Positions 1 to 48,124 of a DNA stretch of 48,124 nucleotides are shown piece after piece. The DNA is from Candidatus Woesearchaeota archaeon (GTDB lineage Archaea > Nanobdellota > Nanobdellia > Woesearchaeales > UBA583): assembly GCA_041631255.1 (NCBI GenBank), contig JBFKKL010000001.1, forward strand, positions 1 through 48,124, read 5' to 3'. Both the position numbers and the translations under genes were made by a program. The first letter of the stretch is position 1, and each line of letters begins with the position of its first letter. Under the pieces are notes generated by a model. That model was not told the origin of the DNA, searched no databases, and worked only from the letters and a program-made list of their open reading frames with translations.

Positions 1-141
1 AAGGTTGCACATCACTTCTAAAATGTCCTCTAACTCAATACAAATTCGATGCACAAGGTCATAAGACAATATTCATTGATTATTCATTACCAATCACTCA
101 AGCCTTAGGTAGATACACAGAACATTTCAATTTAGTTTCAG
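1..141. repeat. Terminal direct repeat, copy 1 (identical to 47984-48124)
   Basis: Compared base by base, all 141 nt are identical. The repeat lies inside an ORF that continues in frame across the junction. Confidence 0.95.
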
Positions 142-815
142 GGTCAAGAAATTCTACAGTTAATGTTCGATTTGATATAAGTACTCCAAGACTTTTAACT
201 CAACCTCTTGAACTAGACCCACAATGTACAAGTGATGCACCATTTGATATTCAGGCTAAATGTTATCAGAAATTAGCAGAATACAATTTGGAGATTGTAA
301 CTAATTTCAATAAATACTTAACTGAGATAAATATTGATGACGTTTGTAAGGATTACAGACAAATCGAATATGTAATTGGCGATAGTTATCCTGAAGAAGT
401 TGTTGAGACTAATAAGCAATTACGAAACGAGAATGCCGATTTGAGAACTAAATTAGATTTAAAGAATGAAGAACTTCTAAACTGTAAAGATGAACAAATT
501 CAACAACGAGACAACTTTCAAAAGACTATCAATGAAAAGGAAGAAGAGAAAGTTGCTCTAGCAAAAGAAAGTGTGAAAAGTGAATACGCTAAAGATAGAC
601 AAACTGAAATTGAGAAAGCAGAGTTCAGAGAGAAATATGGGGGAAAAATTAAATGGCTTCTTTTCATTGCAACAGCAATACCTTTCGGGCTAATTATCTA
701 TTCGGAATTCGTAAGACATAAGAGTCTAAGAAGAAGTAATATGCCGACAGATATATTGTTCATTATCATGATAGTGTTTCTAGTATGTTGGTTAGCGTCA
801 TTAATTTTCATCTAA
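1..815 (+). CDS. 3' part of the junction-spanning gene: coiled-coil region and C-terminal TM helices
   Basis: Codons in phase 3 from position 3 are in frame with the 288..815 track ORF, whose TTG start is an artefact. K/E-rich coiled coil, then hydrophobic segments WLLFIATAIPFGLIIY and ILFIIMIVFLVCWLASLIFI. Confidence 0.8.
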   Translation, partial: GCTSLLKCPLTQYKFDAQGHKTIFIDYSLPITQALGRYTEHFNLVSGSRNSTVNVRFDISTPRLLTQPLELDPQCTSDAPFDIQAKCYQKLAEYNLEIVTNFNKYLTEINIDDVCKDYRQIEYVIGDSYPEEVVETNKQLRNENADLRTKLDLKNEELLNCKDEQIQQRDNFQKTINEKEEEKVALAKESVKSEYAKDRQTEIEKAEFREKYGGKIKWLLFIATAIPFGLIIYSEFVRHKSLRRSNMPTDILFIIMIVFLVCWLASLIFI

Positions 816-843
816 AAAACACGCCCTTTTTTAAATAAAAAAT
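816..843 (+). promoter_or_regulatory. Promoter cassette AAAAACACGCCC-TTTTTTAAATAAAA (33-bp exact repeat of 45331-45363)
   Basis: 811-843 is identical to 45331-45363. In the second copy the TATA centre is about 27 nt from the ATG at 45381. Here it predicts a start near 857. Confidence 0.6.
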
Positions 844-1177
844 GTCAAGTAAAAGTATGGTTCAAGAAATCAATTATAAAGGTAAAACTCTTCTAATAGA
901 GATTAGTGAGAGAGAACCATTTTGGAGTTTGGATGCGAACGGAGAATTAGTTTCGAAAGAGGATAATCCTAATGAAGTTGATGAATCGATTTGTCCAAAC
1001 ATTACAGAACAAATTTATGAAGGGATAATCGAGAACATTGAAACTTATTTCAAAGAGATAGTTGATGAGGGTATCCCTTTTGATAGTTACAGGTGTGAGG
1101 AAGAGGCTTTAATAGATATAAATATTGAGGGTTATGAATCACTAGACGATTTCAACATAAAAGTTGAATTACAATAA
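842..1177 (+). CDS. Acidic hypothetical protein (the leaderless start may be the ATG at 857)
   Basis: 111-aa ORF. The TATA at 829-837 is too close to 842, whereas the second ATG at 857 has the spacing expected for a leaderless mRNA. Confidence 0.6.
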   Translation: MSSKSMVQEINYKGKTLLIEISEREPFWSLDANGELVSKEDNPNEVDESICPNITEQIYEGIIENIETYFKEIVDEGIPFDSYRCEEEALIDINIEGYESLDDFNIKVELQ

Positions 1178-1184
1178 AAGGAAA

Positions 1185-1424
1185 ATGGGATTATTTAATA
1201 GAGAACCAAGACAACCAATTGAAGAAAAGAAAAGCGATATGCCTCCTGCATTCGAAGAGTTAACATCTAAAGTACAAGTTAACATCAGAACTTCATGTAC
1301 AACTGAACATAGAATCAATAGAGAGGAATTACTCAAAGCATTAGGAATAAATAAAAGACCTAACGATAGTTTATTGATGTTCACAGAAGGAGAAGACATT
1401 ATAATTAAGTTAGAGGAACAATGA
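1185..1424 (+). CDS. Hypothetical protein (79 aa)
   Basis: The track ORF 1164.. overlaps the upstream stop. The first ATG at 1185 follows AAGGAAA. Confidence 0.55.
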   Translation: MGLFNREPRQPIEEKKSDMPPAFEELTSKVQVNIRTSCTTEHRINREELLKALGINKRPNDSLLMFTEGEDIIIKLEEQ

Positions 1425-1702
1425 GATTAGACGAAGAAGGAAACATAGAGATACCTGACAAGGTTGTAGCAATCGTATTAATAATCGTATTAACTTTAGT
1501 TGTTGGTATGCTCTATATTTTAAAAGACCCTGAGATGATTCGCCCTGAGTCACAAGTCACAAACTTTTCATTTAGCGAATCTGAGGAGTGTAAAAGATTA
1601 GATTTTGTGTCAGGAAGTGTAGAGATTAGGTGCACTCAAACTAAATGTGTAAATATTCAAGATGAGAAGTATTGCAGTAAGGAGGAAACAATTTACAGAT
1701 GA
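1421..1702 (+). CDS. Small membrane-anchored Cys-containing protein
   Basis: ATGA overlap with the upstream gene. TM segment VVAIVLIIVLTLVVGMLYIL. Confidence 0.6.
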   Translation: MRLDEEGNIEIPDKVVAIVLIIVLTLVVGMLYILKDPEMIRPESQVTNFSFSESEECKRLDFVSGSVEIRCTQTKCVNIQDEKYCSKEETIYR

Positions 1703-1797
1703 AAGTAGATATGAATTTAGTAATGATAGTTTTCTTATCAATATACATAATAGCATCAATAATATTGTATCCTAAACTAATTAAGAGGCTTAATTAA
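1699..1797 (+). CDS. Tiny hydrophobic protein (32 aa)
   Basis: ATGA-coupled ORF below the track cut-off: MKVDMNLVMIVFLSIYIIASIILYPKLIKRLN. Confidence 0.4.
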   Translation: MKVDMNLVMIVFLSIYIIASIILYPKLIKRLN

Positions 1798-1799
1798 GA

Positions 1800-2384
1800 A
1801 TGAAACATAAGATAGGAATTAGAATTGAGAATCAGGAACAAATACCTAAGAAGTGGACTATGGTTGATTATTTAATCAATAATGGAGTAATTAAGTTATC
1901 AAACAAATCTGAATATCGTATGAGACCTTTTGATTCAAAGAAACATGTCATGTTAAGATATTTCCTTTACACGATAATTGATTTACATGCTGAGGGTAAA
2001 AAGAATTTCGGATTCAATCAAATTGTACTTAAGATGAACGAGAATCAAGATAAGTATGATATGAGGACTATGGAGAAGATTAAATATGACACAGAAGTAA
2101 TCTATTCAAAGAAATATCATCTAAACAAACAATTACCTCAACTAAAGAAGATTACGAAAGAACAATATGTGAAAGAGAATGTGTCACGTGCATTAAAGAA
2201 ATATAGTAAGAATCGTAACAGAATCAAAGACAACATTTATTGTTCAATCTATTTATGTTTAGGGAACTTTCTTGAAGTAATTTATTTACAAGATAGTCAA
2301 AATAAAATTCAAAAATATTATTATTTATCTCAAGAAGGAAAGAAACTTGCAAAGAAAGTTTTGAAAGAAAATTATGTTTTTTAG
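1800..2384 (+). CDS. Hypothetical basic protein (194 aa)
   Basis: ORF starting 3 nt after the previous stop, the last gene of the plus-strand block. Confidence 0.6.
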   Translation: MKHKIGIRIENQEQIPKKWTMVDYLINNGVIKLSNKSEYRMRPFDSKKHVMLRYFLYTIIDLHAEGKKNFGFNQIVLKMNENQDKYDMRTMEKIKYDTEVIYSKKYHLNKQLPQLKKITKEQYVKENVSRALKKYSKNRNRIKDNIYCSIYLCLGNFLEVIYLQDSQNKIQKYYYLSQEGKKLAKKVLKENYVF

Positions 2385-2484
2385 AAAAAATTTGGAGATG
2401 TGTCTCCCAACACACTCACACGTTTCACCTGTGTGTGCGTAAGTTTTCTTAGTTTGTGTGTAATTTTGAGCCTATAAATGTAAA

Positions 2485-2518
2485 ATTAGGATTCAGGTCG
2501 CCATAAGTGAATCCTAAT
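2485..2518. other. Perfect 10-bp stem hairpin (ATTAGGATTC / GAATCCTAAT, 14-nt loop)
   Basis: Read directly. It lies in the non-coding region just downstream of the TATA-like CCTATAAATG at 2471-2480. Confidence 0.6.
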
Positions 2519-2841
2519 ATATAATAAAAGTGTTTTGATAAAACCTTTTAAGCAACGAAAACACAAACACAAACTTATTTAAATAATCAAGTCCATAAAT
2601 TAATTGTACAGGACTGAGGTCTTTCTTCCTAGAAAAACTCCTGCTGAATGACAGAAACTCAGATAAGTCTTCCCCAAGCGAACAGTGGAACTAGGCGGTT
2701 AATGTTTAGTGATTTGAAAGCCAATAGTCGCAAACAAAATCACAAGACGAGGCGAGATTCCTTGTCACCATTTGTGTTAAATTGAAACTTATTGCATTAT
2801 TCCTCCACGGGGCTAATTAAAAATTTCATTTTTAGATAAAA

Positions 2842-2870
2842 TTGGGAGTTCAACTGTCCGAAACTCCCAA
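2842..2870. other. Perfect 9-bp stem hairpin (TTGGGAGTT / AACTCCCAA, 11-nt loop)
   Basis: Read directly. On the minus strand it is followed by a T-rich run (TTTTATCTAAAAATGAAATTTTT). Confidence 0.6.
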
Positions 2871-3204
2871 GAATCTGCCAAATAAAAAACCTAAACCCTA
2901 AAATTCTAACAGTATGGCGTCTATACATACCAAATATGAAATTAAGCGATTTGAGAGCACTTTTTAGTGAAAATGACTTATGAGTCGTAAGAAGTGCAAT
3001 TAGAAGGCGTTTAAATATGATATAAGGGCATTTTAGACAGTTTTTCAAAAACTCATACAGAAATTGTATGATTAATTAATTTAACTTCGCCTAATATTTA
3101 AAACACGAAGTTTATTTCTTGAAAACATATTAGTTGACAACTATATTTAATCAGAATCAAATAAAACCTCTCCACTTTTCGTTACACTTTTTAGCCTTGC
3201 GAAC

Positions 3205-3225
3205 AAAACACGCCATTTTATAAAT
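3205..3225 (+). promoter_or_regulatory. Integrase promoter AAAACACGCCA-TTTTATAAAT
   Basis: 21-nt exact match to the reverse complement of 40713-40733. The TATA ends 23 nt before the ATG at 3249 (leaderless geometry). Confidence 0.65.
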
Positions 3226-3248
3226 TCTAAAATTTCAGTTAAAGTATA

Positions 3249-3938
3249 ATGAACAGAAAAGAGTTTGCAAAAATATTGGCAAGACAATTCAGAAAAGAAG
3301 GTTTTGACAATCCAACAGATTACAAAGAGATTCTTAGGAACTTAAGAACTGAGTTGCCTGAAGTGAAAGGCAAGAAAAGAAATAAGAAATTACCTGAGTT
3401 TTTAACTATTGAAGAGGCACGAACATTCATCAATACTGCTCACATGATAGCAACCAAAGATGAGAAGAAAGGAATAATTGCCGAGACATTCATCAAAACA
3501 GGTATGAGAAATTCTGAGTTATGTAAATTAAGAATCGAGAACATTGATTTCGAGAAAGGGATATTCAAGATAGTTGAAGGGAAAGGAAGGAAAGATAGAT
3601 TCGGTCTAATGTCTCAAGATATTCTAAGGTCAATAATTAGAATCACCAAAGGTAGAAAGACAGGTTATGTGTTCTTGAATAAGTACGGTGATAGATATTC
3701 TGAAAGGTCAATGCAATATATAATCAAAGAAATCAAGGAGAAAGCAGGGATAATTAAAGACATTCATCCACACAGTTTACGTCATTCATTTGCAACTATA
3801 CTTGCAGAGGCAGGAGTTGATATTAGAAAGATTCAGAAACTACTTGGGCATGACGACATTAGAACTACAACAATTTATGAACATATGGCAATAGGTCACG
3901 AGAAAGAAGAGATATTGAAAATAACAGGTGGAATTTAA
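3249..3938 (+). CDS. Tyrosine recombinase / integrase (XerC/D-like, short form)
   Basis: Catalytic signature: GMRNSEL (Arg), HPHSLRHSFAT (H-x-x-R), LLGHDDIRTTTIYEH (His...Tyr). Confidence 0.9.
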   Translation: MNRKEFAKILARQFRKEGFDNPTDYKEILRNLRTELPEVKGKKRNKKLPEFLTIEEARTFINTAHMIATKDEKKGIIAETFIKTGMRNSELCKLRIENIDFEKGIFKIVEGKGRKDRFGLMSQDILRSIIRITKGRKTGYVFLNKYGDRYSERSMQYIIKEIKEKAGIIKDIHPHSLRHSFATILAEAGVDIRKIQKLLGHDDIRTTTIYEHMAIGHEKEEILKITGGI

Positions 3939-3964
3939 AGTAATTTTAAATTTTATAAAAAGAA

Positions 3965-4651
3965 TTAGTTAAATATTCCATCAAGAATCCATCCAATGAA
4001 TTTACCAAACCACCCAACTTTAGGTTTCTCAGAAGGAGTACTAGAACCTCCTCCTCCTGCACCAACATTATTTTGTTGAGAGTTATCGTCATCAGACAGG
4101 TCAACAATTTCATTAGAAGGATTTTGGACAGGTTCTTCTTCTCCAACCTCAACATTATAGTTAGGAGTATCTAAAGAGACTTTATTAGTTGGAACTTTAG
4201 GCTCAACTTGTGGCTCAGGCTCTTCGTAATAAAAATGAATTGCATTAGTTACTGTCTCATAAGTATGGTTATCAATTGTGATTACAACAGGCACACCATA
4301 ATGTTTTGACATCACACCAAATTTCTTATCATTTGTGTAAACTTCAAAATAAGGTACTTGTCCTTGAATATTTAAATTCTGAAAAGAACACTCTCCTCTA
4401 AGTTCTCTAGTTTGAGTTTTACCTAAATATTCGAACATAACTTCTTTAGATTCACAATCAACAGAGAAATTCTGAGCAGTATTTGGCACATTAAAATTCT
4501 CAATTTTAAATTCTCCACCTTTCACATTTTCATTAGTCTTAAAGAAAATAAAAGATGCTCCTCCACCTCCATAACTAAATACGGACGCCATTGAACCAAC
4601 AATCACAAAAAGAGCGATTACAAGTTTGGATAATTTATTTACAATTTCCAT
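3965..4651 (-). CDS. Secreted or membrane-anchored protein with Gly tracts
   Basis: N-terminal signal anchor LVIALFVIVGSMASVF. GGGG runs. First gene behind a strong leaderless promoter. Confidence 0.65.
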   Translation of the reverse strand: MEIVNKLSKLVIALFVIVGSMASVFSYGGGGASFIFFKTNENVKGGEFKIENFNVPNTAQNFSVDCESKEVMFEYLGKTQTRELRGECSFQNLNIQGQVPYFEVYTNDKKFGVMSKHYGVPVVITIDNHTYETVTNAIHFYYEEPEPQVEPKVPTNKVSLDTPNYNVEVGEEEPVQNPSNEIVDLSDDDNSQQNNVGAGGGGSSTPSEKPKVGWFGKFIGWILDGIFN

Positions 4652-4692
4652 AGTTTTATAGGGTTTGTTTTATTTATAAAAGTGCGTGTTTT
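4652..4692 (-). promoter_or_regulatory. Promoter cassette AAAACACGCAC-TTTTATAAATAAAACAAACCCTATAAAAC
   Basis: Nearly identical to 27954-27988 and 30012-30046. There are 19 nt between the TATA and the ATG at 4651. Confidence 0.7.
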
Positions 4693-5801
4693 CATTTCTG
4701 TATGATTAATGGAGTTTTTGTCGCATATACATAAGTGTCAACATAATTTATAACAAAAGATTTCAAAACTCTATCATAAGTTTTAAGATACTCTTCAGGA
4801 AAATCAAATTGATTACAGAATTCTATATCTCGAACTTTCACTGAGTTCAAATTATTTTTTGCATCAGGAATTAAACATAGTGCATTCACTCTTGCAACAA
4901 TTTCATTTTTATAATCACTAGAAACGTAATTTCCTTTAGAAAAGACTTTTTTCAAATTAAGAGTCCATTCAACATCTTCGACTTCATTAACTCCATTTAA
5001 CATGGCATATCTTTTCTGCCAAAACTTTTCGTTATAAATCGTACAACCTGCATTAGCATTATCTCTTCCGTTGAAATTATAGATTGAACATTGGTAAGTC
5101 TCTGACCCTAATTGTCCTGTAGCGTCAAGATAATGAGTAATTTCATGCATAAACACATTTTCGAGAGTATTAAAAAACTCTCCATCTGATTTAGTATCAT
5201 TTCTAATTTCATCCAATGCAATATAGATATTTGTATCATTGTAAATAATAATTCCTAAAACATCATATTCAAGATTATTTAAATTAGAGATGTAATCTTG
5301 TTCAACAAAATAGGCATCAAGTTCACCTTCAATATCTATCCCGTAATAAAAAGATTGGTTCATTTCAAATCTATCAACAGCATCGAAAAGCACAGTTTGA
5401 TAATTCTCATCTTTCAAAACTCTTTCAGTATCAAGTGTGAAAATTGGAGCAAGACCAACAATAAATATTAACAATGCAATAGAGAAAACTAAAATATGTT
5501 TTATTTCAACTGCCAAAGGACTTCTATATTTAGCGATTATGTTATGCACAAAATAAAGTACAATCATAATTATTCCGAAGATATACCAAACAGAGTATCT
5601 AAAAGTTAAATCGAAAAAATAATCAAAAAAAATTATTGCGGGATAGAAGAGCATATTTGAAATAAAAGAATAGAACGCTATTTGAAATTCAGGCAATCCA
5701 AGAACACTAAGCCTACTAAAGAGTTGAAACACTGAATAGAAAACACCAATCAAAAGATAATAACCAAGATAATTCAATTCCTTTTTCAATCTTTTATTCA
5801 T
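4692..5801 (-). CDS. Polytopic membrane protein with a C-terminal HExxH metallopeptidase-like domain
   Basis: Multiple N-terminal TM helices. FMHEITHYLD contains HEITH. The likely start is the ATG at 5801, ATGA-coupled to the upstream gene. Confidence 0.5.
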   Translation of the reverse strand: MNKRLKKELNYLGYYLLIGVFYSVFQLFSRLSVLGLPEFQIAFYSFISNMLFYPAIIFFDYFFDLTFRYSVWYIFGIIMIVLYFVHNIIAKYRSPLAVEIKHILVFSIALLIFIVGLAPIFTLDTERVLKDENYQTVLFDAVDRFEMNQSFYYGIDIEGELDAYFVEQDYISNLNNLEYDVLGIIIYNDTNIYIALDEIRNDTKSDGEFFNTLENVFMHEITHYLDATGQLGSETYQCSIYNFNGRDNANAGCTIYNEKFWQKRYAMLNGVNEVEDVEWTLNLKKVFSKGNYVSSDYKNEIVARVNALCLIPDAKNNLNSVKVRDIEFCNQFDFPEEYLKTYDRVLKSFVINYVDTYVYATKTPLIIQK

Positions 5802-6106
5802 AACCAAGTCCTCACAAGTAATGCTCCAATCATTGCAATTATCAAATCCCAAACAATATCTTTAATTGTCTCTTCTCTAAAAAATATTCCGTAGAGCAAG
5901 AATTCAAACACCTCATACATGATAAGCATCACAAAAATAACAAACAAAGGATTAGAGATTTTGTATTTATCCAAAAGAAAATATATTATTGCACCTGAAA
6001 AGAAATGCACAACAGACCAAAGATTAAGAAAAATAAAACTATTTTCATAAATCACTGTATTCAAAAAGATTCCAACTTTATTTTCAATTAATGTCTCTTT
6101 CGTCAT
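5798..6106 (-). CDS. Small multi-TM membrane protein
   Basis: 102 aa, three hydrophobic segments. Confidence 0.6.
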   Translation of the reverse strand: MTKETLIENKVGIFLNTVIYENSFIFLNLWSVVHFFSGAIIYFLLDKYKISNPLFVIFVMLIMYEVFEFLLYGIFFREETIKDIVWDLIIAMIGALLVRTWL

Positions 6107-6115
6107 TTTAACCTA

Positions 6116-6484
6116 TTATTCTAATTTTTTTATTATGTCTCTTTTTATATGCTCTAAAGGTCTGTCACATGTATCAACAAATGCAGTTGAAATGGTGCTA
6201 GATTTGTTTCCCTTTGCAGAAGAGATTACATAACACCCGACGTTTATTCCTTTTATATATTCATATATTTTTATTGTAAAAGTTTCATTCCATCTTTTAG
6301 AGAAATACACAAAATCAGGCAATCTCTTAACATTTTCACTTCTTACCACCACACTTTCATTAATATTGTCTACAGATATATACATTGGACTTTTACTTTT
6401 GGGTTCTACCTTTTTCACATCAATATTTCTATCGTGTGCACGTCTTCCGTCACTTCCTTTTTTTACTTTGATTGTTCGTTTCAT
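6116..6484 (-). CDS. Protein with the shared basic N-terminal module (KRTIKVK...H.R...VEPKSKSP), paralog 1
   Basis: The N-terminus aligns with the ORFs at 17781 and 18874. VEPKSKSP is identical to the 17781 ORF. Confidence 0.6.
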   Translation of the reverse strand: MKRTIKVKKGSDGRRAHDRNIDVKKVEPKSKSPMYISVDNINESVVVRSENVKRLPDFVYFSKRWNETFTIKIYEYIKGINVGCYVISSAKGNKSSTISTAFVDTCDRPLEHIKRDIIKKLE

Positions 6485-6501
6485 TTTTTATTTTTACCAA
6501 A

Positions 6502-6575
6502 TAACGAGTAAAGGATTTGAACCTTTGACTTTCGGAGCATGAATCCGAATCTCTACCTAACTGAGTTAACTCGTT
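6502..6575 (-). tRNA. tRNA with anticodon CAU (Met, or Ile2 if C34 is modified); no encoded CCA
   Basis: Cloverleaf folded by hand. Acceptor AACGAGT/ACTCGTT, D arm ACTC-AGTTAGGTA-GAGA, anticodon stem TCGGA/TCCGA with loop TTCATGC, variable loop AAGTC, T arm AAAGG-TTCAAAT-CCTTT, discriminator A. Confidence 0.85.
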
Positions 6576-6590
6576 ACAAAAAAAGTGGAA

Positions 6591-6809
6591 TTATTTCCAC
6601 CACTTGAAAGCCTTACCAATAAGATAAACTGTTCCCGCACCAACAAGTATGTAAACAGAATTTTCTAACACAGGCATCGAACCTAATAAATAATTTACTA
6701 GATTAAAAGACTTTCCCATAAGACTTGTAACTCCTACAAGCCCCCAATTCAAACCACCTACAGCAGTAAGTGTCATACTAACATTTCCTAAAATTTTATT
6801 TCGTGCCAT
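6591..6809 (-). CDS. DUF378-like small membrane protein (two TM helices)
   Basis: GGLNWGLVGV...LVNYLLG...VYILVGAGTVY matches the DUF378 pattern from memory. Confidence 0.6.
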   Translation of the reverse strand: MARNKILGNVSMTLTAVGGLNWGLVGVTSLMGKSFNLVNYLLGSMPVLENSVYILVGAGTVYLIGKAFKWWK

Positions 6810-6821
6810 TTTTCTTTTTTT

Positions 6822-7202: not shown

Positions 7203-7256
7203 TTTTTATTTTTTTTAGTGACTAACTCATACTGCGTTTAAGCAATCCTTTGGGCG

Positions 7257-40689: not shown

Positions 40690-40712
40690 AATACTAATTC
40701 TGCATTTTCATT

Positions 40713-41275: not shown

Positions 41276-41278
41276 AAA

Positions 41279-41722
41279 ATGGATAACCTATCAAAAAATC
41301 AAGAAACAGTATTGACTTTACGGAAACAAGGATTGACTCAAAAAGAAATAGGTGATGAATTAGGAGTTTCAAAACAAGCCATTTCAAAAACAATGAAAAT
41401 TTTGAGAAGAAAAGCCGTAATACCAAGAAAAGAACTGCACAACTCTTTTAATATTCCTTTGAGAGGCATAAAATTTTTTCACGATGGATATGTAAAGTTT
41501 AATTCGGAGGGAAATGAAATATTTTTACATAGACATATTTGGGAAATAAACAATGGCACCATTCCTGAAGGTTATGTAATTCACCATATCAATTTAAATC
41601 GAAGTGATAACAGATTAAACAATTTAATGTGTTTAACTCATAAACAACATAGAGAGTTACATAAAAAAATTGATAATGGAATTCAAGAAATAACAAAAAA
41701 ATTCATGAAAGAAATACAATAA
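41279..41722 (+). CDS. HTH (sigma-70 region 4/LuxR-like) plus HNH endonuclease fusion
   Basis: LTQKEIGDELGVSKQAISKTMKIL, then HRHIWEINNGTIPEGYVIHHINLNRSDNRLNNLMCLTHKQHRELH. Confidence 0.8.
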   Translation: MDNLSKNQETVLTLRKQGLTQKEIGDELGVSKQAISKTMKILRRKAVIPRKELHNSFNIPLRGIKFFHDGYVKFNSEGNEIFLHRHIWEINNGTIPEGYVIHHINLNRSDNRLNNLMCLTHKQHRELHKKIDNGIQEITKKFMKEIQ

Positions 41723-41723
41723 A

Positions 41724-42710
41724 ATGGTCGAAAAAACATATAAAAAAACAAGAGGTTCCCCTACCCCTACCCTTATGAGGTTGCAAAAGGTTCCTTTTGA
41801 CATAGAAGTCTTAGAAGAATTAAGTGAAATTCAATTAGATATTTTATGTAAATTATGTGTTGATTTCATGTCAAGAAAAGAAATTGCAAAAAGCCGTAAT
41901 GTGTCTCCACAAGCCATAGGAAAAGTAATTAGGAAGTTTAGAAAAGAAGGAATAATAGACAATTTTAATCGCCCAAATACAGACATAAAACCTCAAGGTT
42001 CCCCTACCCCTAAAAAAGGTAGGGGTTCCTCACCTGACAACCCCAAAAATAACAAACTTTTTAGGTTACATGGAGAGAATATGTCAGCAAAAATTCTAAA
42101 GACTTCTCCTAAGTATATGAAACTAATTGAAAAGAAATCACAATTTCCAATTAAAGGAAACAAAGTAATGTTACATAGAAGAAAAGTTGTCATTTATTCA
42201 AGTACTTCTTTTTATGATAAAGACCCGAGGGAGTGTGAGAGAAAAAGTAATGATTATTGGACTAATTTTTATAGGATTTTAGAAAATGAATTAGGTATCA
42301 GAATAATTATGGGTGTAAAAACCGAGATTTATCAATTTAGAAGGCATATTGGAAGAATCAACGACCCTCTTGCAAAAAATGTAATACAAGAAAGATTATA
42401 TTATAGAGTTGTAGATGATTTAGGTCAAGAAAGATTAATTATTGATAACTCAGGTAATATGGCAGAACATGAGGCAACCCATAAAGAATTATGTATTGAT
42501 GATATTGAGAAAATTGCCCAATATGATTTAGACATAATTACAAAAGAACATTTCAAACCTAGTGAGATTTCAGCACTATTTAAAAAACTAACAGAGAATT
42601 TTACTTATTTGCAAGAGTTTGTAGGAATGAGTGAAGGAAGACAAGCAAAAACAGAGGCACATTTGGAAGATACAGTAAGACTATTGAAAGAGGTATTAAA
42701 GAGATTATGA
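41724..42710 (+). CDS. HTH-containing protein with GSPTP repeats (candidate replication or DNA-processing protein)
   Basis: MSRKEIAKSRNVSPQAIGKVIRKFRKEGII is paralogous to the upstream HTH. The rest is unassigned. Confidence 0.5.
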   Translation: MVEKTYKKTRGSPTPTLMRLQKVPFDIEVLEELSEIQLDILCKLCVDFMSRKEIAKSRNVSPQAIGKVIRKFRKEGIIDNFNRPNTDIKPQGSPTPKKGRGSSPDNPKNNKLFRLHGENMSAKILKTSPKYMKLIEKKSQFPIKGNKVMLHRRKVVIYSSTSFYDKDPRECERKSNDYWTNFYRILENELGIRIIMGVKTEIYQFRRHIGRINDPLAKNVIQERLYYRVVDDLGQERLIIDNSGNMAEHEATHKELCIDDIEKIAQYDLDIITKEHFKPSEISALFKKLTENFTYLQEFVGMSEGRQAKTEAHLEDTVRLLKEVLKRL

Positions 42711-42820
42711 CAGGAATAATCGGAAACGCTCCTGAGTACAAATCTAAGAAAGGGAGAAAGAAGTTTGCAATATCACAGTTCCATGCAAGAATGGACAAAT
42801 TAAAGAGGAATTTAAGATGA
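42707..42820 (+). CDS. Tiny basic protein (37 aa)
   Basis: ATGA-coupled, below the track cut-off. Confidence 0.35.
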   Translation: MTGIIGNAPEYKSKKGRKKFAISQFHARMDKLKRNLR

Positions 42821-42939
42821 AAAATAAAGACAATTTACCAATCAATTGTACAAAAGAAGAGATAATCACTGACAAGATGAAAGGTGGCAAGTTTTGGGAT
42901 AACTTGGAAAAATTAAAAAACAAAGGTAAAAATGGTTAG
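42817..42939 (+). CDS. Tiny protein (40 aa)
   Basis: ATGA-coupled, below the track cut-off. Confidence 0.35.
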   Translation: MKNKDNLPINCTKEEIITDKMKGGKFWDNLEKLKNKGKNG

Positions 42940-43042
42940 AGAAACTAGAAAAGACAAACTAATGAGAATCAAGAGACAAATCCAAGAACATTTGGCTTTG
43001 AGAGTAAGAAATAAATTAAAAGAATTAGAGGTAAAACAATAA
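42932..43042 (+). CDS. Tiny basic protein (36 aa)
   Basis: Overlap-coupled, with a TAATG junction to the next gene. Confidence 0.35.
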   Translation: MVRETRKDKLMRIKRQIQEHLALRVRNKLKELEVKQ

Positions 43043-43647
43043 TGGCAATATCAACATCAAAATATAAGAAAGGCAAGATAGGTTCAAAACATTTCCAAAA
43101 AACTAATTTCAATAGAAAACATTACAAAGACAAATTACTTAGAGGGATATTAGATAGTATAGGTAAATACCAAGAAACAATTGACGGCTATTCAGTTTAT
43201 GGATTCCCTAAGAACAATCCAACTAAGTATCGTTTCGTCAAAGGTAAGCGAAAGATATGCAATTTATCTCCTAAAGACATTTTAGTTATCATGTCAAGAA
43301 AACTTCCTCCTGAAGAGTTCAGGGATTGGTGTTTCAGTAATATTGGTGTTTTAGACATAATGAAAAACTCTCTTGGCGGTTCAAGTGATATTGAAGGTTG
43401 GAAAAAAATAATTCAAAGATTTGTCAATTCAACCACTACAAGAAACATAAACGAGTTCATTGAAAGTGAAATGGATTTTGATAAGAAAGAGGTTTTGTAT
43501 AAAGAGAGTATTGACATATTAGAAGATAAAGTTGATTCACTTCAAGACGAGATTGCAAGATTAAAAGCAGAATTAACAATTCAGAAAAGAAAAGATATTG
43601 TAATCAATGAAAGTTCAACAGAGATTAACGATTATCAAAAAACATAG
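43042..43647 (+). CDS. Hypothetical protein with a C-terminal coiled coil
   Basis: 201-aa ORF, ...VDSLQDEIARLKAELTIQKRK. Confidence 0.55.
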   Translation: MAISTSKYKKGKIGSKHFQKTNFNRKHYKDKLLRGILDSIGKYQETIDGYSVYGFPKNNPTKYRFVKGKRKICNLSPKDILVIMSRKLPPEEFRDWCFSNIGVLDIMKNSLGGSSDIEGWKKIIQRFVNSTTTRNINEFIESEMDFDKKEVLYKESIDILEDKVDSLQDEIARLKAELTIQKRKDIVINESSTEINDYQKT

Positions 43648-43676
43648 TTTTATAAGTACAACAAACCCTATAAAAC
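43645..43676 (+). promoter_or_regulatory. Promoter-like cassette TAGTTTTATAAGTACAACAAACCCTATAAAAC
   Basis: Degenerate copy of the 27954 cassette. It is followed by about 170 nt with no ORF longer than 10 codons. Confidence 0.45.
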
Positions 43677-43851
43677 TATCTTTTGCAAAGTAAATGTTAA
43701 ATCATTAATAGCAAACAGCAATAACTTAACATTAGCAGTACTCAAGACAAATATTCATCAGGTTGTTTTTCACTACGGAAACGCCATTTGAGTAGGTATT
43801 TATGGAGTACAAAGCGAGAGAATCAATTTAACTTTCAATTAAATAACGAAA

Positions 43852-44013
43852 ATGGATAAAAAATTAATGAAAGAAACAGGCGACAAGATTTTAGACATTA
43901 TTGGAGAGTCAGGACTATCTGAATATGAAAGTCATAAAATGTTAGAACTTATTATAGAATCGCTAATAGATAAAACTATTATGGAGAGAGATGAAACTCT
44001 ATTAAACTTATAA
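43852..44013 (+). CDS. Small protein (53 aa)
   Basis: ORF below the track cut-off. Confidence 0.4.
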   Translation: MDKKLMKETGDKILDIIGESGLSEYESHKMLELIIESLIDKTIMERDETLLNL

Positions 44014-44024
44014 TTAAATGAAGA

Positions 44025-44216
44025 ATGAAACAAGAAGAAATAAAAAAAATGAAAAAAACATTAAATGACAAAATACAAGAATATGAGAATTGGCTTAACC
44101 ATTTAAAACAAGTAATTAATAGAACAGAAAATGGTATAAGAGTTCTTGAATTAAAAGCACAAGAACAAGTTTTAGAAACAATAGTTAAAGAATTAAAAAA
44201 TCTTTCAAATAATTAA
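44025..44216 (+). CDS. Small coiled-coil protein
   Basis: 63-aa K/E-rich ORF. Confidence 0.45.
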   Translation: MKQEEIKKMKKTLNDKIQEYENWLNHLKQVINRTENGIRVLELKAQEQVLETIVKELKNLSNN

Positions 44217-44280
44217 AATCTGTAACATTATAATATTAAAAAGATAAGTTTATAAATATAAATAATATGATAATATTAAT

Positions 44281-44967
44281 ATGGTAAAAACATATAAAGT
44301 ACAAGTAAATAAAGCAAATGGGCAACCTTTCGTAAATCTTAGTAAGAAAGATGGTTGGAAAGAAGGAGATGAGATAATTCCTCAAATTAAATGGGGTGGA
44401 ATCTATAATAAATCAATGTTAGAGAAGTATTACGAAGAAAATAAAGAAAATCTAACAGAATTAAAGAAAGAACTTGAAGAACTATACAAAGATTACTTTG
44501 AGGGGGAAAAATATAAATTCATAACAGAATCTATGCCTCAAATATTTGGATTAGGAAAAATGATTAATGGGAATGAAGAACCTTATGAATTTGAAAATTC
44601 AGATTTTGGATGGTATCCTATGGATGATATTGATGGAGGGACAATCGGAGATGTTTATTACCAATTAGATAAATATCTCAAATATATTAATGAAAATAAA
44701 TATGATTTGAAAGAAAAACACCCTCAAGAATTAAAAGAATTGGCTTCAATTTCATATATTAAATTATGTTTTGAGAGATTGATTGAACAATTTGAAAGAG
44801 CAAAAGACAAAATACTTGAAAATTACAATTTTGAAGTGTCAAAAGAATCTGGTGATATGTATGATGTTTATAGTAATGGGAAAGTATTTTTGAGGTTCTT
44901 TGAGAAAAGGATTTGTAGTTTAGAAATAGGAGATTTACATCAAGAAAATTTCCTTTCTTTTAATTAA
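44281..44967 (+). CDS. Hypothetical protein with a possible AbrB/SpoVT-like N-terminus
   Basis: VQVNKANGQPFVNLSKKDGWKEGDEII. TATA GTTTATAAATAT lies about 25 nt upstream. Confidence 0.4.
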   Translation: MVKTYKVQVNKANGQPFVNLSKKDGWKEGDEIIPQIKWGGIYNKSMLEKYYEENKENLTELKKELEELYKDYFEGEKYKFITESMPQIFGLGKMINGNEEPYEFENSDFGWYPMDDIDGGTIGDVYYQLDKYLKYINENKYDLKEKHPQELKELASISYIKLCFERLIEQFERAKDKILENYNFEVSKESGDMYDVYSNGKVFLRFFEKRICSLEIGDLHQENFLSFN

Positions 44968-44970
44968 AAA

Positions 44971-45096
44971 ATGGAAACAATAGAAATAATAAATTTTATA
45001 TATTATATAAATCTATATTGGTTTATTACTTATCCTTTAATGATTATATTTTATATATATTTTATTTATTTCATTCCAAAATATTCAAACAATTAA
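44971..45096 (+). CDS. Possible tiny hydrophobic protein (41 aa)
   Basis: ORF in extremely AT-rich sequence, so it could occur by chance. Confidence 0.25.
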   Translation: METIEIINFIYYINLYWFITYPLMIIFYIYFIYFIPKYSNN

Positions 45097-45109
45097 AAAA
45101 TAAATAAAA

Positions 45110-45319
45110 ATGGTAGAAGCATTAGAAAACAAATGGATTTATAGAGATAAAGATATAACTTTTTCAAGTGATGGCGATAATGAAGTATTTTTAAGAAAAG
45201 ATGTTGAACTTGCAGTTAAAGAAATGACTAAAGAATTATTAAATTCAGATTTAGAAAGTTTTACAGGTGATAATATAACAGATTTAATATATAAACACTT
45301 TGGAGAGGACTTTCTTTAA
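45110..45319 (+). CDS. Small acidic hypothetical protein
   Basis: 69-aa ORF. Confidence 0.5.
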   Translation: MVEALENKWIYRDKDITFSSDGDNEVFLRKDVELAVKEMTKELLNSDLESFTGDNITDLIYKHFGEDFL

Positions 45320-45335
45320 ATTAAATTCTATCTAA

Positions 45336-45363
45336 AAAACACGCCCTTTTTTAAATAAAAAAT
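45336..45363 (+). promoter_or_regulatory. Promoter cassette AAAAACACGCCC-TTTTTTAAATAAAA (copy 2)
   Basis: 33-bp exact repeat of 811-843. The TATA centre is about 27 nt before the ATG at 45381. Confidence 0.65.
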
Positions 45364-45380
45364 TTCAATATCTTTATTAG

Positions 45381-45563
45381 ATGAGTGAAGACGAACTAAT
45401 TATTTACGATGAGGAAGGCAAAGAGACCATAAATGTTGACGCTCACGAACGGAAAAAGAGATTAAAAAAAGAATTAAAAGAACTCAAGAAAAAGGAAAAA
45501 GAATCTGTTCCAAAAGAGGTTTTAGATAAATTCAAAAGAGGGAAAGATGATGGTAAAAACTAA
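45381..45563 (+). CDS. Small K/E-rich protein
   Basis: Leaderless geometry behind the promoter. Confidence 0.5.
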   Translation: MSEDELIIYDEEGKETINVDAHERKKRLKKELKELKKKEKESVPKEVLDKFKRGKDDGKN

Positions 45564-45993
45564 TTTGACTCTTCTCTTTGAATTGTGTAATAAAGGTTTT
45601 TTGGAGAAACAACAATTGAAAAGGTATTTCAATAATAAGAACGCCAAGAACTTAAGGAGTTGTCTTGAATCGATGTTTAATTTAAGTTTAGACGAGATAT
45701 TAAAATTAAGAGGATTAGTATTTGAGGCATGGGAATCACCTAAAAAAATATGGAGTGAGAACGAGATTTTAATATTCGGTCAATTATTAAGAATGAATGG
45801 AGTTGCAACAGTTAACGAATTATACAAGAAAAGTAAGATAGATAAAATTGAGAAAGTACGTGACGCAGTTATCGGTTTAGAAGAGAACGAAACTAATCCA
45901 AAGAAGACTGCTCCTGTAATGACAACAAAATCTAATGGCAATTCAAAGATAGTGTTCATATCGCCAAAATTTGTGAGGAAAATGTTAAAATGA
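45547..45993 (+). CDS. Hypothetical protein (148 aa)
   Basis: ORF only. Confidence 0.55.
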   Translation: MMVKTNLTLLFELCNKGFLEKQQLKRYFNNKNAKNLRSCLESMFNLSLDEILKLRGLVFEAWESPKKIWSENEILIFGQLLRMNGVATVNELYKKSKIDKIEKVRDAVIGLEENETNPKKTAPVMTTKSNGNSKIVFISPKFVRKMLK

Positions 45994-46940
45994 GTAAGGT
46001 AAAAATATTTTTAGTATTAGGAATAATTTTAGGGATAATAGGTTTAGTAATTTACAATAATTATTCAAACACTCCAACAACTGTTCCTGTTCAATCAACA
46101 AATTTAAATCAAACGAACGTAAAAGTACCGCAATGTGTTGATGGTATCGATAACGATTTAGACGGATTTGTAGATTACACTGAAGACAATGATTGTACTG
46201 ACGCATCAGACAATTCTGAAAGAAATTGGGATTGGTTAAAGTTTTTAGCATTAGGGATAGTTATTGCAGGAGCAGGATTAACAACATATTGGTACTTTTG
46301 GCTTAGAGAAAAGAAAGAAGACGATAACGGATTATTTGAAAAACCAATTAATGGTGATAGAGCCTACGATATTATTTTAGACAAATTCTTGAGAGAACAT
46401 GTTGACGATATACATTGCATTCCAAATGAAAAAGATTCAACACTTATGAAACCTAAAGATAAGAAGGCAATTCAAAGAATAAATCATTTCCCAATAATCA
46501 AACATTCAGAGCATTTCCTTTACAATTTCATTAGAATCACTCAAGGGAACATGGCAGGAGAGCATGTACTTTCATTCTCATTATCAAGAGGCGAAGAACA
46601 TCTCAAAGGTGGCACATACAGATTAGAATTAAATAAACCTTATGAAATATGGGAAAATAAATTTAGAACTTTCCCTATGTCAAGTCCTGAAACTAAATCG
46701 GAAAAAATCGCTCTTGCACTTGCAGAGACAGCAGATTCAGCAGAAGAATACAATGCAATTTTAGCACAATCTTTAAAGAATGTTAACAGTTCACAAGGCA
46801 ACGATTTAACTGATGAAGAGTATAGTAATTGGATACAATCTCAAAGGACACAACCTAAGAACAAGAAAAAGAAAAATAATAATCAGCAATCTCCAATCCA
46901 ATATGTTGAGGCACACGCTGAGGAGGCGGATGAACAATGA
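45990..46940 (+). CDS. Bitopic membrane protein with a CxDGxDNDxDGxxD Ca-binding-like extracellular motif
   Basis: TM1, then QCVDGIDNDLDGFVDYTEDNDCTD, then TM2 (LALGIVIAGAGLTTYWYFW) and a cytoplasmic domain. Confidence 0.55.
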   Translation: MSKVKIFLVLGIILGIIGLVIYNNYSNTPTTVPVQSTNLNQTNVKVPQCVDGIDNDLDGFVDYTEDNDCTDASDNSERNWDWLKFLALGIVIAGAGLTTYWYFWLREKKEDDNGLFEKPINGDRAYDIILDKFLREHVDDIHCIPNEKDSTLMKPKDKKAIQRINHFPIIKHSEHFLYNFIRITQGNMAGEHVLSFSLSRGEEHLKGGTYRLELNKPYEIWENKFRTFPMSSPETKSEKIALALAETADSAEEYNAILAQSLKNVNSSQGNDLTDEEYSNWIQSQRTQPKNKKKKNNNQQSPIQYVEAHAEEADEQ

Positions 46941-47392
46941 AATTCTATATTTGGGAAAAAATCTTTTTAGTCCTTTTAGTTATCACGATGTTAAGCATAA
47001 GTGGACTAAGTTATATAGGTATTTTAAGTTCAAAAATTTATTCAATCAAATATCATGACGATTTTTTTGTAAACTTAGTGATAGATAAATGTGAAGAAAA
47101 GGAAACTAATTTAAGTAAAGTAAATTGCGTGAACGAGTTCATGGCACAGCATTTCAAGTACGGTGAAAAAAGAAACCTTATAGGCGATTCACCTTCACAC
47201 ATGTTCTCAAATACAGGAAATTGTAAGGAATCTTCTTTCTTCTATGAATTAGTATTAAACAAATTAGGTATAGAAACTAAATTAGTTTTCCTAAATAATC
47301 ACGTTTACACAATAGCATACAGTGACAATTTTTATTGTAATTTAGACCAAGAATATATGAACTGTGCAACAATTGAGGTAAAAGAGAAATGA
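46937..47392 (+). CDS. Membrane-anchored transglutaminase-like (papain-fold) protein
   Basis: GNCKESSFFYELVLNKLGIETKLV...NHVYT...LDQ matches the Cys/His/Asp order of the transglutaminase core. Confidence 0.45.
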   Translation: MKFYIWEKIFLVLLVITMLSISGLSYIGILSSKIYSIKYHDDFFVNLVIDKCEEKETNLSKVNCVNEFMAQHFKYGEKRNLIGDSPSHMFSNTGNCKESSFFYELVLNKLGIETKLVFLNNHVYTIAYSDNFYCNLDQEYMNCATIEVKEK

Positions 47393-48124
47393 GTGAAAAG
47401 ATATATTGGATTCTAACAAAAGAAGAAATAAAATCAAATGTGAATTTGAAAAATATATTGTGGATAGTATTAATGTTATTATTAGCATTTTCAACTACTA
47501 ATATAGTGCATGGTTATACGTACTATGAAGAGTTCTCACATAACGAGGCAGGATTCCCTTTAGGAGGGGTAACACAAGAATACCAATTCCCATTCTTAGC
47601 GAATCAAACTCTTTTTTTTGTTCAGGAAGAACGTCAAGACGATAAAGTATTTTTAGATTTTCCAAGCCAATTCACACACACAAATAATACTAACGGTTAC
47701 ATATTCAAAATCAATTATACTTTATTGGATAGAGTGTATTCAGAAAGCACATCTTTCAACGTGTCAGTAAAAGTAACTAATTCCAAGAACAATCAATCAG
47801 CAACAATAGGTATGAAATTTAATATAGAAAAAACTGCACTTGGTGCAATTCAAGTTATAGGAACTGACGAATTAGTTATTGAAAATGGAACATACGTCAA
47901 AAGAATAACTCAAGACAAACTACCCTCCGCAGGTAACTTATCTTTCAATGTGGTAGGTGAACCTAACGAGTTCTTCACATTACAAGGTTGCACATCACTT
48001 CTAAAATGTCCTCTAACTCAATACAAATTCGATGCACAAGGTCATAAGACAATATTCATTGATTATTCATTACCAATCACTCAAGCCTTAGGTAGATACA
48101 CAGAACATTTCAATTTAGTTTCAG
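47389..48124 (+). CDS. 5' part of a junction-spanning gene (469 aa once the overlap is removed): N-terminal signal anchor and sequon-rich ectodomain
   Basis: ATG at 47389 overlaps the upstream TGA (ATGA). The frame stays open to the window end and continues in frame at position 142. MSEKIYWILTKEE..NILWIVLMLLLAFSTTN is a hydrophobic anchor. Confidence 0.8.
   Translation, partial: MSEKIYWILTKEEIKSNVNLKNILWIVLMLLLAFSTTNIVHGYTYYEEFSHNEAGFPLGGVTQEYQFPFLANQTLFFVQEERQDDKVFLDFPSQFTHTNNTNGYIFKINYTLLDRVYSESTSFNVSVKVTNSKNNQSATIGMKFNIEKTALGAIQVIGTDELVIENGTYVKRITQDKLPSAGNLSFNVVGEPNEFFTLQGCTSLLKCPLTQYKFDAQGHKTIFIDYSLPITQALGRYTEHFNLVS
47984..48124. repeat. Terminal direct repeat, copy 2 (identical to 1-141)
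   Basis: Same as copy 1. Most simply explained as an assembly overlap of a circular molecule. Confidence 0.95.

Follow-up and report, generated by a model that had tools for sequence, protein, structure and literature searches.

The window analysed here, positions 1 to 48,124 of contig JBFKKL010000001.1 from the Candidatus Woesearchaeota archaeon assembly GCA_041631255.1, is the complete circular genome of an integrase-bearing mobile element. Judged by its sequence, the element is archaeal, has a DPANN host of the Nanobdellota/Woesearchaeota type and is one of at least nine kindred elements of 33–58 kb. These form an undescribed family, whose conserved core looks like a machine that moves DNA across or into a membrane. 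The element is a new kind within a known class, that of archaeal elements which lack a capsid, bear an integrase and combine a membrane-protein module with HerA/VirB4-type ATPases. By analogy with characterized systems, we tentatively read it as an element that persists as a plasmid and spreads by contact-dependent transfer of double-stranded DNA (dsDNA).

A closed circular genome

The two ends of the window overlap exactly over 141 bp (1..141 = 47984–48124), with no second overlap length found by end comparison, and the sequence is therefore a closed unit of 47,983 bp (31.2% G+C). The largest k-mer used by MEGAHIT is 141, and an end overlap of that k-mer length is what circular or circularly permuted metagenomic assemblies usually show. 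After circularization, an open reading frame (ORF) of 469 amino acids (aa), g85, runs in frame across the junction (47389..815, + strand), which bears out the closed 47,983-bp replicon proposed in a preliminary description made from the letters of the window. An assembly chimera is unlikely because the ATPase region is identical in the independent Logan assembly of SRR29257411 and the gene order recurs on contigs from other samples.

A greedy call on the unit gave 85 ORFs (94% coding). Pfam and PHROGs profiles were run on all 85 of them, and NCBIfam on 20, in individual or alignment mode; most had no match in Pfam or PHROGs, and the 10 window proteins looked up in sequence clusters were all nameless singletons at 90% identity. 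The integrase, transfer RNA (tRNA), two FtsK/HerA-type ATPases and two HNH nucleases that the same description had listed were all recovered by profiles, ARAGORN/Rfam or motifs. The integrase is short and is assigned to the tyrosine recombinases by its Phage_integrase catalytic domain; an integrase gene is likewise present in two relatives (L007 and L012, below).

3249–3938, + strand: tyrosine recombinase/integrase, 229 aa (PF00589 8.5e-42, residues 51–214; phrog_1 integrase 3e-39)

A DPANN host

We assigned the element to a DPANN host because of three independent lines of evidence: the kinship of the ATPase g47, the N-terminus of the pilin-like protein g32 and archaeal-type transcription signals.

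31948–33333, + strand: g47, HerA-clade P-loop ATPase, 461 aa, Walker A AKSGSGKS (DUF87/PF01935 2e-30)

First, g47 is 50–55% identical to proteins of ~700 aa that are named Nanoarchaeota, Woesearchaeota or Nanobdellota at NCBI, one of which sits amid housekeeping genes on a 1.54-Mb Woesearchaeota chromosome (CP060218). The element ATPases are 54–62% identical among themselves, as distant from each other as from these cellular forms, which cluster tightly; this likeness implies exchange of the gene between host and element. The cellular DUF87 ATPase of ~700 aa is conserved in DPANN genomes, has a C-terminal extension of ~240 aa and adjoins unannotated genes of 536 and 296 aa.

Second, the N-terminus of g32 (96 aa, with a weak Flp1_like match), KAEISPVVATALLLVVAVTLVVGFQAWY, is nearly identical to KALSPVVASVLLIVVAVLASLGFQTWY in two proteins of chromosome CP060218, near which lies a prepilin peptidase gene, and it looks like a class III (type IV pilin) signal of archaea. 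Third, 6/13 TTT[AT]TAAAT boxes end 20–24 nt before a called start codon, and one further box ends 23 nt before an ORF absent from the gene call. Shine-Dalgarno-like motifs are found on internal genes (33/85, against a background of 7%). The TATA-box spacing suggests archaeal leaderless first genes. The archaeal rather than bacterial origin first proposed is thus upheld by the DPANN ATPase kin, the pilin-like signal and the promoter spacing, with one amendment: the host is DPANN, not one of the Thermococcales/Methanococcales.

A family of elements with a conserved core

Relatives were gathered from the contigs returned by the ATPase search, where short forms (460–510 aa) occurred on contigs of 22–58 kb beside the ~700-aa cellular forms, and from profile scans with g30, g19 and g24. 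This yielded at least eight distinct relatives, of 33–58 kb apart from one 22-kb fragment, from groundwater and other metagenomes, all with 26–36% G+C.

L002: Ga0452219_001179, 48,454 bp
L003: SRR26786839_5077, 58,372 bp
L007/L009: 15 contigs including a Rifle groundwater scaffold (BioSample cited in PMC4742961), 36.3–36.7 kb
L011: Ga0210043_1000364, 47,259 bp
L012: fragment, 22 kb
L013: SRR17165155_58974, 33,344 bp
L014: NODE_1008, 34,738 bp
L015/L018: IMGVR_UViG_3300019755_000003, 47,943 bp

Four family members fall at 47.3–48.5 kb. Comparison of the window proteins with the relatives' loci by tblastn outlined a core of ~18 genes in conserved order, mostly encoding membrane or secreted proteins: g22, g21, g20, g19, g18 and g16 of operon A; g24 and g30 of operon B; g37 (small, Cys-rich) and g47; g69, g66, g64, g63 and g61 of operon C; and g83, g84 and g85 of operon D. 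Core proteins are 25–60% identical across elements from unrelated samples, while the cargo differs. The giant glycoproteins vary too, with Big_12 or LamG domains in relatives, and some relatives encode an SNF2 helicase and a DNA methyltransferase close to their g64 homologue.

Cargo of the relatives includes DUF3560 (at the position of g26), a zeta toxin, IS200 Y1 transposases, RadC and an HD domain protein, as well as an SNF2 helicase, an N6/N4 methyltransferase and DUF4942. Such variable cargo is typical of plasmids and temperate elements. It was located at the following sites.

L012: 2305–3636, 4815–5714, 6596–7144
L014: 5720–6613
L003: 13165–15294

The family is nearly missing from public catalogues. 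Nothing related to g30 or g64 was found among GenBank phages or GTDB representative genomes; PLSDB held nothing related to g64, and for g47 only generic DUF87 matches at no more than 30% identity. Searches of IMG/VR with g47 (as a single protein and as an 8-sequence alignment) and with the g64 and g30 alignments gave no match, and an alignment scan of JGI metagenomes (g30/g64) returned two loci only. A single family contig, L015/L018, is held in IMG/VR; a 537-aa ORF that adjoins its g30 homologue was considered as a further ATPase and is not detectably one. With at least eight relatives that share a core, of which searches found one in IMG/VR but nothing in GenBank phages, PLSDB or the GTDB representatives, the earlier suggestion of an undescribed family now has members to support it.

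Two HerA-clade ATPases

The second ATPase, g64, lies in operon C directly beside an HNH nuclease gene.

37395–38690, − strand: g64, second HerA-like ATPase, 431 aa, Walker A SSAGFGKS, Walker B LFLDDA
36993–37391, − strand: g63, HNH nuclease of operon C (IscB-type HNH 1.5e-16)
36551..40689, − strand: operon C, comprising g69, g68, g67, g66 (coiled coil), g65, g64, g63, g62 and g61

Profile and motif evidence places both g47 and g64 in the HerA clade of the FtsK-HerA P-loop ATPases. For g47, the NCBIfam models HerA (5.5e-40), CedD (1e-32) and HerA_antiphage (1.3e-29) all matched below their curated cut-offs, PDB HerA matched at 3e-26, and VirB4_plasma (1.3e-5) and TraC (1.7e-3) matched its ATPase domain, again below cut-off. 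The Walker motifs of g64 are missed by a strict motif search, and a word-index homologue search with it returned the query alone; a full HMMER scan found only 80 related clusters in 1.84 billion representatives. A profile of 50 members of this family matched solved HerA structures in the PDB at 1e-12, and 9/50 members matched DUF87 individually. Matches of g64 to NCBIfam CedD (0.046) and of its profile to B204 of Sulfolobus turreted icosahedral virus (STIV; E 0.014) were marginal or weaker. Both proteins, at 431–461 aa, are larger than packaging-type ATPases (~200–250 aa). The order of operon C is kept in L002, L007, L012–L014 and L018, and in the conserved core the g64-type ATPase always adjoins an HNH nuclease.

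A large envelope module

By hydropathy scan, ORFs with at least one predicted transmembrane (TM) segment total ~25.6 kb, so that about half of the coding capacity goes to membrane and surface proteins; the membrane-rich character noted at the outset holds, its figure of ~20 kb being slightly low. Many of these proteins carry a signal peptide and a C-terminal anchor, and all beta-rich proteins of the element bear signal or TM segments. Most of the module is laid out in two operons.

7257..15975, − strand: operon A, genes g22 to g14
12858..14021, − strand: g19, 387 aa, signal peptide, ectodomain and C-terminal TM anchor
16425..26603, + strand: operon B, genes g24 to g32
19667..20599, + strand: g30, 310 aa, family-specific membrane protein with 7–8 helices

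Operon A, whose gene order is the same in L007, L013 and L015, encodes small multi-TM proteins (g22, g21, g18, g17), Cys-rich membrane-anchored ectodomain proteins (g20 and g19), g16, g15 and a variable glycoprotein of 1,177 aa with 41 NxS/T sequons (g14). The best-conserved envelope protein is g19 (51–60% identity, at least 12 invariant Cys), and its profile had no match in the PDB.

Operon B encodes a beta-rich membrane-anchored protein (g24), small TM proteins (g25, g28, g29), the acidic g26, the pilin-like g32 and a glycoprotein of 1,901 aa with 85 NxS/T sequons and an MG2 domain at residues 1737–1820 (g31). Within g31 (21813–25273), a 357-bp (119-aa) unit recurs in tandem four or five times, and repeats of ~720 bp at 64–88% identity are present in three copies, giving a repeated-domain architecture. 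The junction-spanning g85, kept in L013 and L014, has an N-terminal TM segment or signal, an ectodomain, a coiled coil and two C-terminal TM segments.

g30 was found in every related element examined, and it has only seven relatives in a collection of 5.8 billion proteins. With g28 and g29 it forms a small, small, polytopic trio of membrane proteins. An AlphaFold model built from the seven sequences reached a predicted local distance difference test score (pLDDT) of 71 and a predicted template modelling score of 0.76. Residues E159, F208xxxH212 and H251xxN254N255 are invariant in the seven sequences; they recall the three CPBP/CAAX motifs (EExxxR, FxxxH, HxxxN; a 6–8-helix Rce1-like fold), and many surface proteins of the element end in a TM helix and a basic tail, ends that a CPBP/CAAX-type enzyme could process. 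As a CPBP protein, g30 had no Pfam or PDB-sequence match, Foldseek returned no Rce1, and viral CAAX proteases matched at E 5–8. Assignments of g30 as VirB6/CedA or as a CPBP protease found no support in Pfam, PDB sequences or PDB folds; the CPBP motifs are kept as a motif-level lead.

No capsid, portal, tail or classical terminase gene detected among the 85 ORFs

The preliminary description had seen no HK97 capsid, portal or terminase, and the profile scans agree: no capsid, portal, tail, scaffold or classical terminase was found among the 85 ORFs with Pfam or PHROGs. This exclusion is based on sequence profiles and on elimination of ORFs, with structure models covering g30 and g24. One PHROG ‘terminase small subunit’ match (4.4e-13) was no longer returned by a scan without the integrase and the two HNH proteins, and it therefore belongs to one of these three. 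Among the soluble ORFs, those that reach 300 aa encode the two ATPases, a GT2-family glycosyltransferase, g72 (winged-helix), g66 (coiled-coil) and g26 (acidic), and no soluble ORF appears to be left over for a TerL, portal or HK97 capsid protein. On this accounting, the element lacks the hallmarks that define Caudoviricetes (HK97 capsid, portal, TerL with ATPase and nuclease).

Other capsid types were also considered. No jelly-roll capsid protein was matched in Pfam or PHROGs, and the sole beta-rich candidate modelled (g24, from a single sequence) gave an unusable model with a pLDDT of 45. g66 was considered as a jelly-roll capsid protein beside the ATPase and was rejected, as it reads as a coiled coil; g26, considered as an ArdA-like antirestriction protein or a capsid protein, had no match even at E 1 and is acidic and, by eye, helical. 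For the capsid proteins of spindle-shaped and pleomorphic viruses (SSV1 VP1/His1 VP21, pleolipovirus VP3/VP4), no PHROG or Pfam match was found among the small membrane ORFs, although distant homologues could have escaped, such proteins being short and divergent.

Possible modes of spread: contact-dependent transfer or an enveloped virion

Sequence alone cannot separate contact-dependent transfer from an enveloped virion. Transfer is slightly favoured because the core is likened to the pNOB8, Ced and pT26-2 systems (see the last section). That core unites two HerA ATPases of hexameric type, a 7–8-helix membrane protein with two small membrane proteins ahead of it, and some ten more conserved proteins that are membrane-bound or secreted. 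If so, the element would persist as a plasmid, possibly through an iteron-like array and the winged-helix protein g72 (both described below), and might integrate through its own integrase. It would spread by contact-dependent dsDNA transfer, as in Sulfolobales conjugative plasmids or Ced: contact between cells would be made by the giant adhesins together with the pilin, which the host prepilin peptidase would process; two secreted proteases, g9 and g84, would breach the envelope; DNA processing would fall to the HNH nuclease and the ATPase g64; and hexameric ATPases would pump the DNA through a channel of g30 and small membrane proteins. By analogy, the ~12 conserved envelope proteins appear to match a secretion or mating apparatus in size. 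Near absence from virus catalogues (one IMG/VR contig, none in GenBank phages) supports this reading, as do the zeta toxin, IS200 transposase and RadC of relatives, which are typical plasmid cargo.

Several findings weigh against it. The searches brought up no relaxase, no VirB4 N-terminal domain, no VirD4-type membrane anchor and no homology to VirB6 or CedA, and no ParA/ParB partition system was detected in the window. The best PDB match of the g30 model had E 0.87, so that a VirB6-like channel is not supported, and its sole significant structural neighbour is A0A5Q2WAB7 in BFVD, a nameless 304-aa protein filed under viruses (E 1.4e-10, TM-score 0.80, 28% identity). g47 matches phrog_2666 ‘terminase large subunit’ (2e-21) and a Blautia phage gene with the same label (25% identity); we set this label aside because Pfam, NCBIfam and the PDB all put g47 in the HerA clade. 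The tRNA gene, the pair of HNH endonucleases and the strong promoter recurring at many transcription units are features seen more commonly in viruses, disulfide-rich conserved ectodomains such as that of g19 suit virion proteins equally well, and one relative is an IMG/VR viral genome.

Much of this would be expected of an enveloped, non-icosahedral DPANN virus (pleomorphic, spindle-like or vesicle-type) that is temperate through its integrase, which is the strongest alternative and nearly as probable as transfer. Its envelope would comprise the small membrane proteins with g19, g20 and g24, the giant glycoproteins would bind receptors, and the HerA-type ATPase with the adjacent HNH protein would act as a terminase analogue that cuts and loads the genome. 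The ~25 kb of membrane and secreted coding, including type-I anchored, conserved, disulfide-rich ectodomains, argues for such a virus, along with the viral-filed BFVD neighbour of g30, the 47,943-bp IMG/VR genome L015/L018, the clustering of four members at 47.3–48.5 kb, the tRNA, HNH and promoter features, the lack of detected partition genes and the phrog_2666 match of g47. LamG domains in the giant protein of one relative point the same way; the spindle viruses PAV1 and TPV1 have adhesins with LamG domains. However, capsid proteins of spindle-shaped or pleomorphic viruses had no PHROG or Pfam match, two HerA-like ATPases and ~12 conserved envelope proteins exceed the usual complement of such viruses, the IMG/VR and BFVD virus labels are computational, and relatives carry zeta toxin and IS200. 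That the element stands for a new family of enveloped capsid-less DPANN viruses, with no capsid protein common to established realms, in which HerA and HNH proteins load dsDNA into a membrane particle instead of a terminase or A32-type ATPase and the ATPase was exchanged with a host cellular ATPase, we consider less likely than not.

That the element is a plasmid or symbiosis island incapable of transfer, remodelling the DPANN cell surface for host attachment while its ATPase and HNH proteins serve replication, repair or defence, is improbable. This reading would account for the giant variable adhesin-like glycoproteins, the pilin and the GT2 protein; HerA-nuclease pairs occur in DNA repair and anti-phage defence, a role echoed by the sub-cut-off HerA_antiphage match of g47 (1.3e-29) and by the SNF2 helicase and DNA methyltransferase near the g64 homologue in some relatives. 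Yet a core of ~18 genes kept at 25–60% identity while cargo varies is the pattern of self-propagation, and integrases are present in the window, L007 and L012.

Less probable still is a virus of the HK97 head-tail or double-jelly-roll kind with structural genes that have diverged beyond the reach of profiles. DPANN-associated proteins are often very divergent, most ORFs have no match, a usable structure model was obtained for one ORF only, and FtsK/HerA-type ATPases do package jelly-roll viruses (compare the g64 profile match to STIV B204, E 0.014). Against this, a different likely role can be given to each soluble ORF of 300 aa or more, the beta-rich proteins all carry signal or TM segments, no terminase-type ATPase-nuclease, portal-sized protein or tail genes were found with PHROGs or Pfam, and the ATPases are of HerA size (431–461 aa) and not of the packaging type of ~200–250 aa. 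Lastly, a bacterial (for example, candidate phyla radiation) phage or plasmid, or an assembly chimera, is scarcely credible: the best phage-database matches of the integrase and HNH genes are in bacterial phages, which is uninformative because these families are ubiquitous, whereas DPANN is indicated by the genes that do carry lineage information, the promoters have archaeal-like spacing, and a chimera is contradicted by the gene order on independent contigs and the SRR29257411 assembly.

Other genes of the element

Outside the modules above, the following genes were recognized.

3965..5852, − strand: g8 (secreted, 228 aa) and g9 (386 aa)
4692–5852, − strand: g9, three TM helices followed by a domain with a HEITH zinc-protease motif
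45990..47392, + strand: g83 (membrane protein) and g84
46937–47392, + strand: g84, signal peptide and transglutaminase-like Cys/His core (E 4.6e-4), Cys-protease candidate
28583..29758, + strand: GT2-family glycosyltransferase, 391 aa (PF00535 1.1e-15)
41279–41722, + strand: g71, helix-turn-helix plus HNH_3 endonuclease (2.9e-18)
41279..42710, + strand: block of g71 and g72
6501–6576, − strand: tRNA with anticodon CAT, the sole tRNA (ARAGORN and Rfam concur)

g9 is kept in L002, and g83 and g84 are both kept in L013/L014; g9 and g84 are candidate envelope-opening or protein-processing enzymes, as their motifs suggest. g72, a winged-helix protein of 328 aa, may be a Rep protein or a regulator. 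Profile scans also detected several further helix-turn-helix proteins and one small DUF378 membrane protein. The tRNA (39% GC, A1-U72 pair, CCA not encoded) sits in a leftward operon and ends 17 nt ahead of the following gene. It could be an initiator-like tRNA-Met, or a tRNA-Ile2 for the AUA codons of an AT-rich genome, and it is not obviously an attachment site.

Two pairs of inverted repeats (6384–6414/17863–17893, 94% complementary; 6460–6493/19178–19211, 79%) reflect a basic N-terminal motif common to g11 and g27 (44% identity over 39 aa). These small, basic proteins may be paralogous DNA-binding proteins.

Promoters, repeats and origin candidates

Two promoter cassettes recur around the element, and one iteron-like array was found.

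820–836, 3209–3225, 30011–30027 and 45340–45356 (+ strand), 4672–4688 and 40713–40729 (− strand): promoter cassette CACGCCMTTTTWTAAAT, 17 bp
4650–4695 (− strand), 26770–26812, 27944–27987, 30001–30044, 33736–33778 and 43631–43674: second cassette ACACACTTTTATAAATAAAACAAACCCTAWAA
16015–16211, intergenic: iteron-like array of ~six tandem 30-bp units GTTTCAATTTTGAAAACCTAAAAAATCACC with palindromic core TTTCAAnnTTGAAA

The CACGCCMTTTTWTAAAT cassette occurs in 6 copies against 0.04 expected, and in 4/6 its TATA-like box ends 20–24 nt ahead of a start codon. The cassettes suggest a shared element-specific regulator or B recognition element. The iteron-like array sits between the two divergent large envelope operons and is a candidate origin or operator.

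Promoter positions also bear on the gene call. At 26.8 kb the greedy call probably took the wrong strand (26881–27093, − strand, against 26823–27023, + strand), the + strand ORF at 26823–27023 (66 aa) beginning 23 nt past a TATA box. The call may also err at ~33.8 kb (near 33789, + strand), to go by promoter spacing, and the real start of g1 (842–860 region) may lie a few codons downstream of 842.

Implications for DPANN archaea

DPANN archaea make up a large share of archaeal diversity, and to our knowledge almost nothing is known of their mobile elements or of gene movement among these tiny host-attached cells. With the window, a family nearly missed by standard virus and plasmid catalogues gains a closed reference genome in which promoters and core genes are defined. 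Were the element conjugative, DPANN would join the archaea with contact-dependent DNA transfer, the machinery being pared down to two HerA ATPases and an HNH nuclease; were it a virus, it would add a capsid-less lineage with an unusual packaging motor. In either case, partners in DPANN symbioses may recognize each other through its conserved Cys-rich surface proteins and its variable giant adhesins, and the 50–55% identity between element and host ATPases is a handle for host assignment.

Comparison with known systems

The preliminary description likened the element to spindle-shaped or pleomorphic archaeal viruses and to the pT26-2 plasmid family. As architecture this likeness stands; as kinship it does not, no genes being held in common beyond the ATPase superfamily. 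The same applies across pT26-2, pNOB8, Ced and the spindle-shaped and pleomorphic viruses, to all of which the likeness is architectural, with no membership detected by sequence.

Pleomorphic and spindle-shaped viruses (Pleolipoviridae, Fuselloviridae, Halspiviridae, Thaspiviridae, PAV1/TPV1) have, like the window, no icosahedral capsid, many small hydrophobic proteins and anchored glycoprotein spikes, and often an integrase and one P-loop ATPase. The window differs in its two HerA-like ATPases and conserved HNH protein, and the genomes of pleolipoviruses and fuselloviruses are several times smaller than its own. For DPANN hosts, Munson-McGee and colleagues (J Virol, 2020) reportedly described Nanoarchaeotal virus 1 from viral metagenomes, with a circular genome of 35.6 kb, a size close to that of the L007/L009 relatives. 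It exists as a taxon (unclassified archaeal virus, taxid 2661841). The accession range of the UniProt entry A0A5Q2WAB7, the structural neighbour of g30, presumably fits the 2019 deposit of this virus; the entry may therefore belong to it, which we treat as a lead only.

In the Ced/Ted systems of archaeal DNA import (CedA, CedA1, CedA2, CedB, CedD), the HerA-clade pair CedB and CedD works alongside one polytopic and two small membrane proteins (PMC11868833), and the g28-g29-g30 trio has the same layout as the Ced membrane proteins. The CedD model scored 113 bits against g47, with a curated cut-off of 600 bits. Ced is chromosomal and imports DNA.

Elements of the pT26-2 family are integrative and capsid-less, with a membrane-protein-rich module in which some proteins are large, and with a HerA/VirB4-like ATPase of ~450 aa that is the proposed DNA mover, the transfer mode being unknown (PMC6972569). 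They measure 17–38 kb, are limited to Thermococcales/Methanococcales and share a core of seven genes found in all members (t26-5p, 6p, 7p, 11p, 13p, 14p, 15p) (PMC6972569). The authors liken the family to the vesicle-borne pR1SE, an infectious plasmid transferred in vesicles that contain many plasmid-encoded TM proteins (PMC6972569). We compared pMEFER01, of this family, and pNOB8 with the window using all window proteins (tblastn) and the family profiles of g30, g19 and g64. The ATPase of pMEFER01 matched the g64-family profile at 1.2e-12, no better than generic PDB HerA, and no match to the window was found beyond this ATPase. pMEFER01 also differs in carrying MCM.

pNOB8, a conjugative plasmid of Sulfolobales, is circular (~41 kb) and, like the window, carries an integrase, two DUF87 ATPases and many hypothetical membrane proteins; it has no assigned relaxase type (MOB_Unknown in PLSDB). 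Self-transfer of pNOB8 has been shown experimentally. Its 631-aa DUF87 ORF matched the g64-family profile at 2e-4, and a 47-aa tblastn match to g47 had E 0.002; only the P-loop region matched, with no match found for any membrane protein, other protein or profile. The large TrbE-like and TraG-like ATPases and the membrane-protein cluster that mark pNOB8-type plasmids thus had no counterpart in the window beyond the P-loop level. The ATPases of pNOB8 have 1,025 and 630 aa against 461 and 431 aa in the window, and it has ParA/ParB, which were not detected in the window; the window in turn goes beyond pNOB8 in its giant glycoproteins, HNH nucleases, tRNA and DPANN host. By sequence comparison the element is placed in neither the pT26-2 family nor the pNOB8-type plasmids, because it shows only ATPase-superfamily likeness, no stronger than to generic HerA. 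In architecture, pNOB8 is the closest of the experimentally characterized systems.

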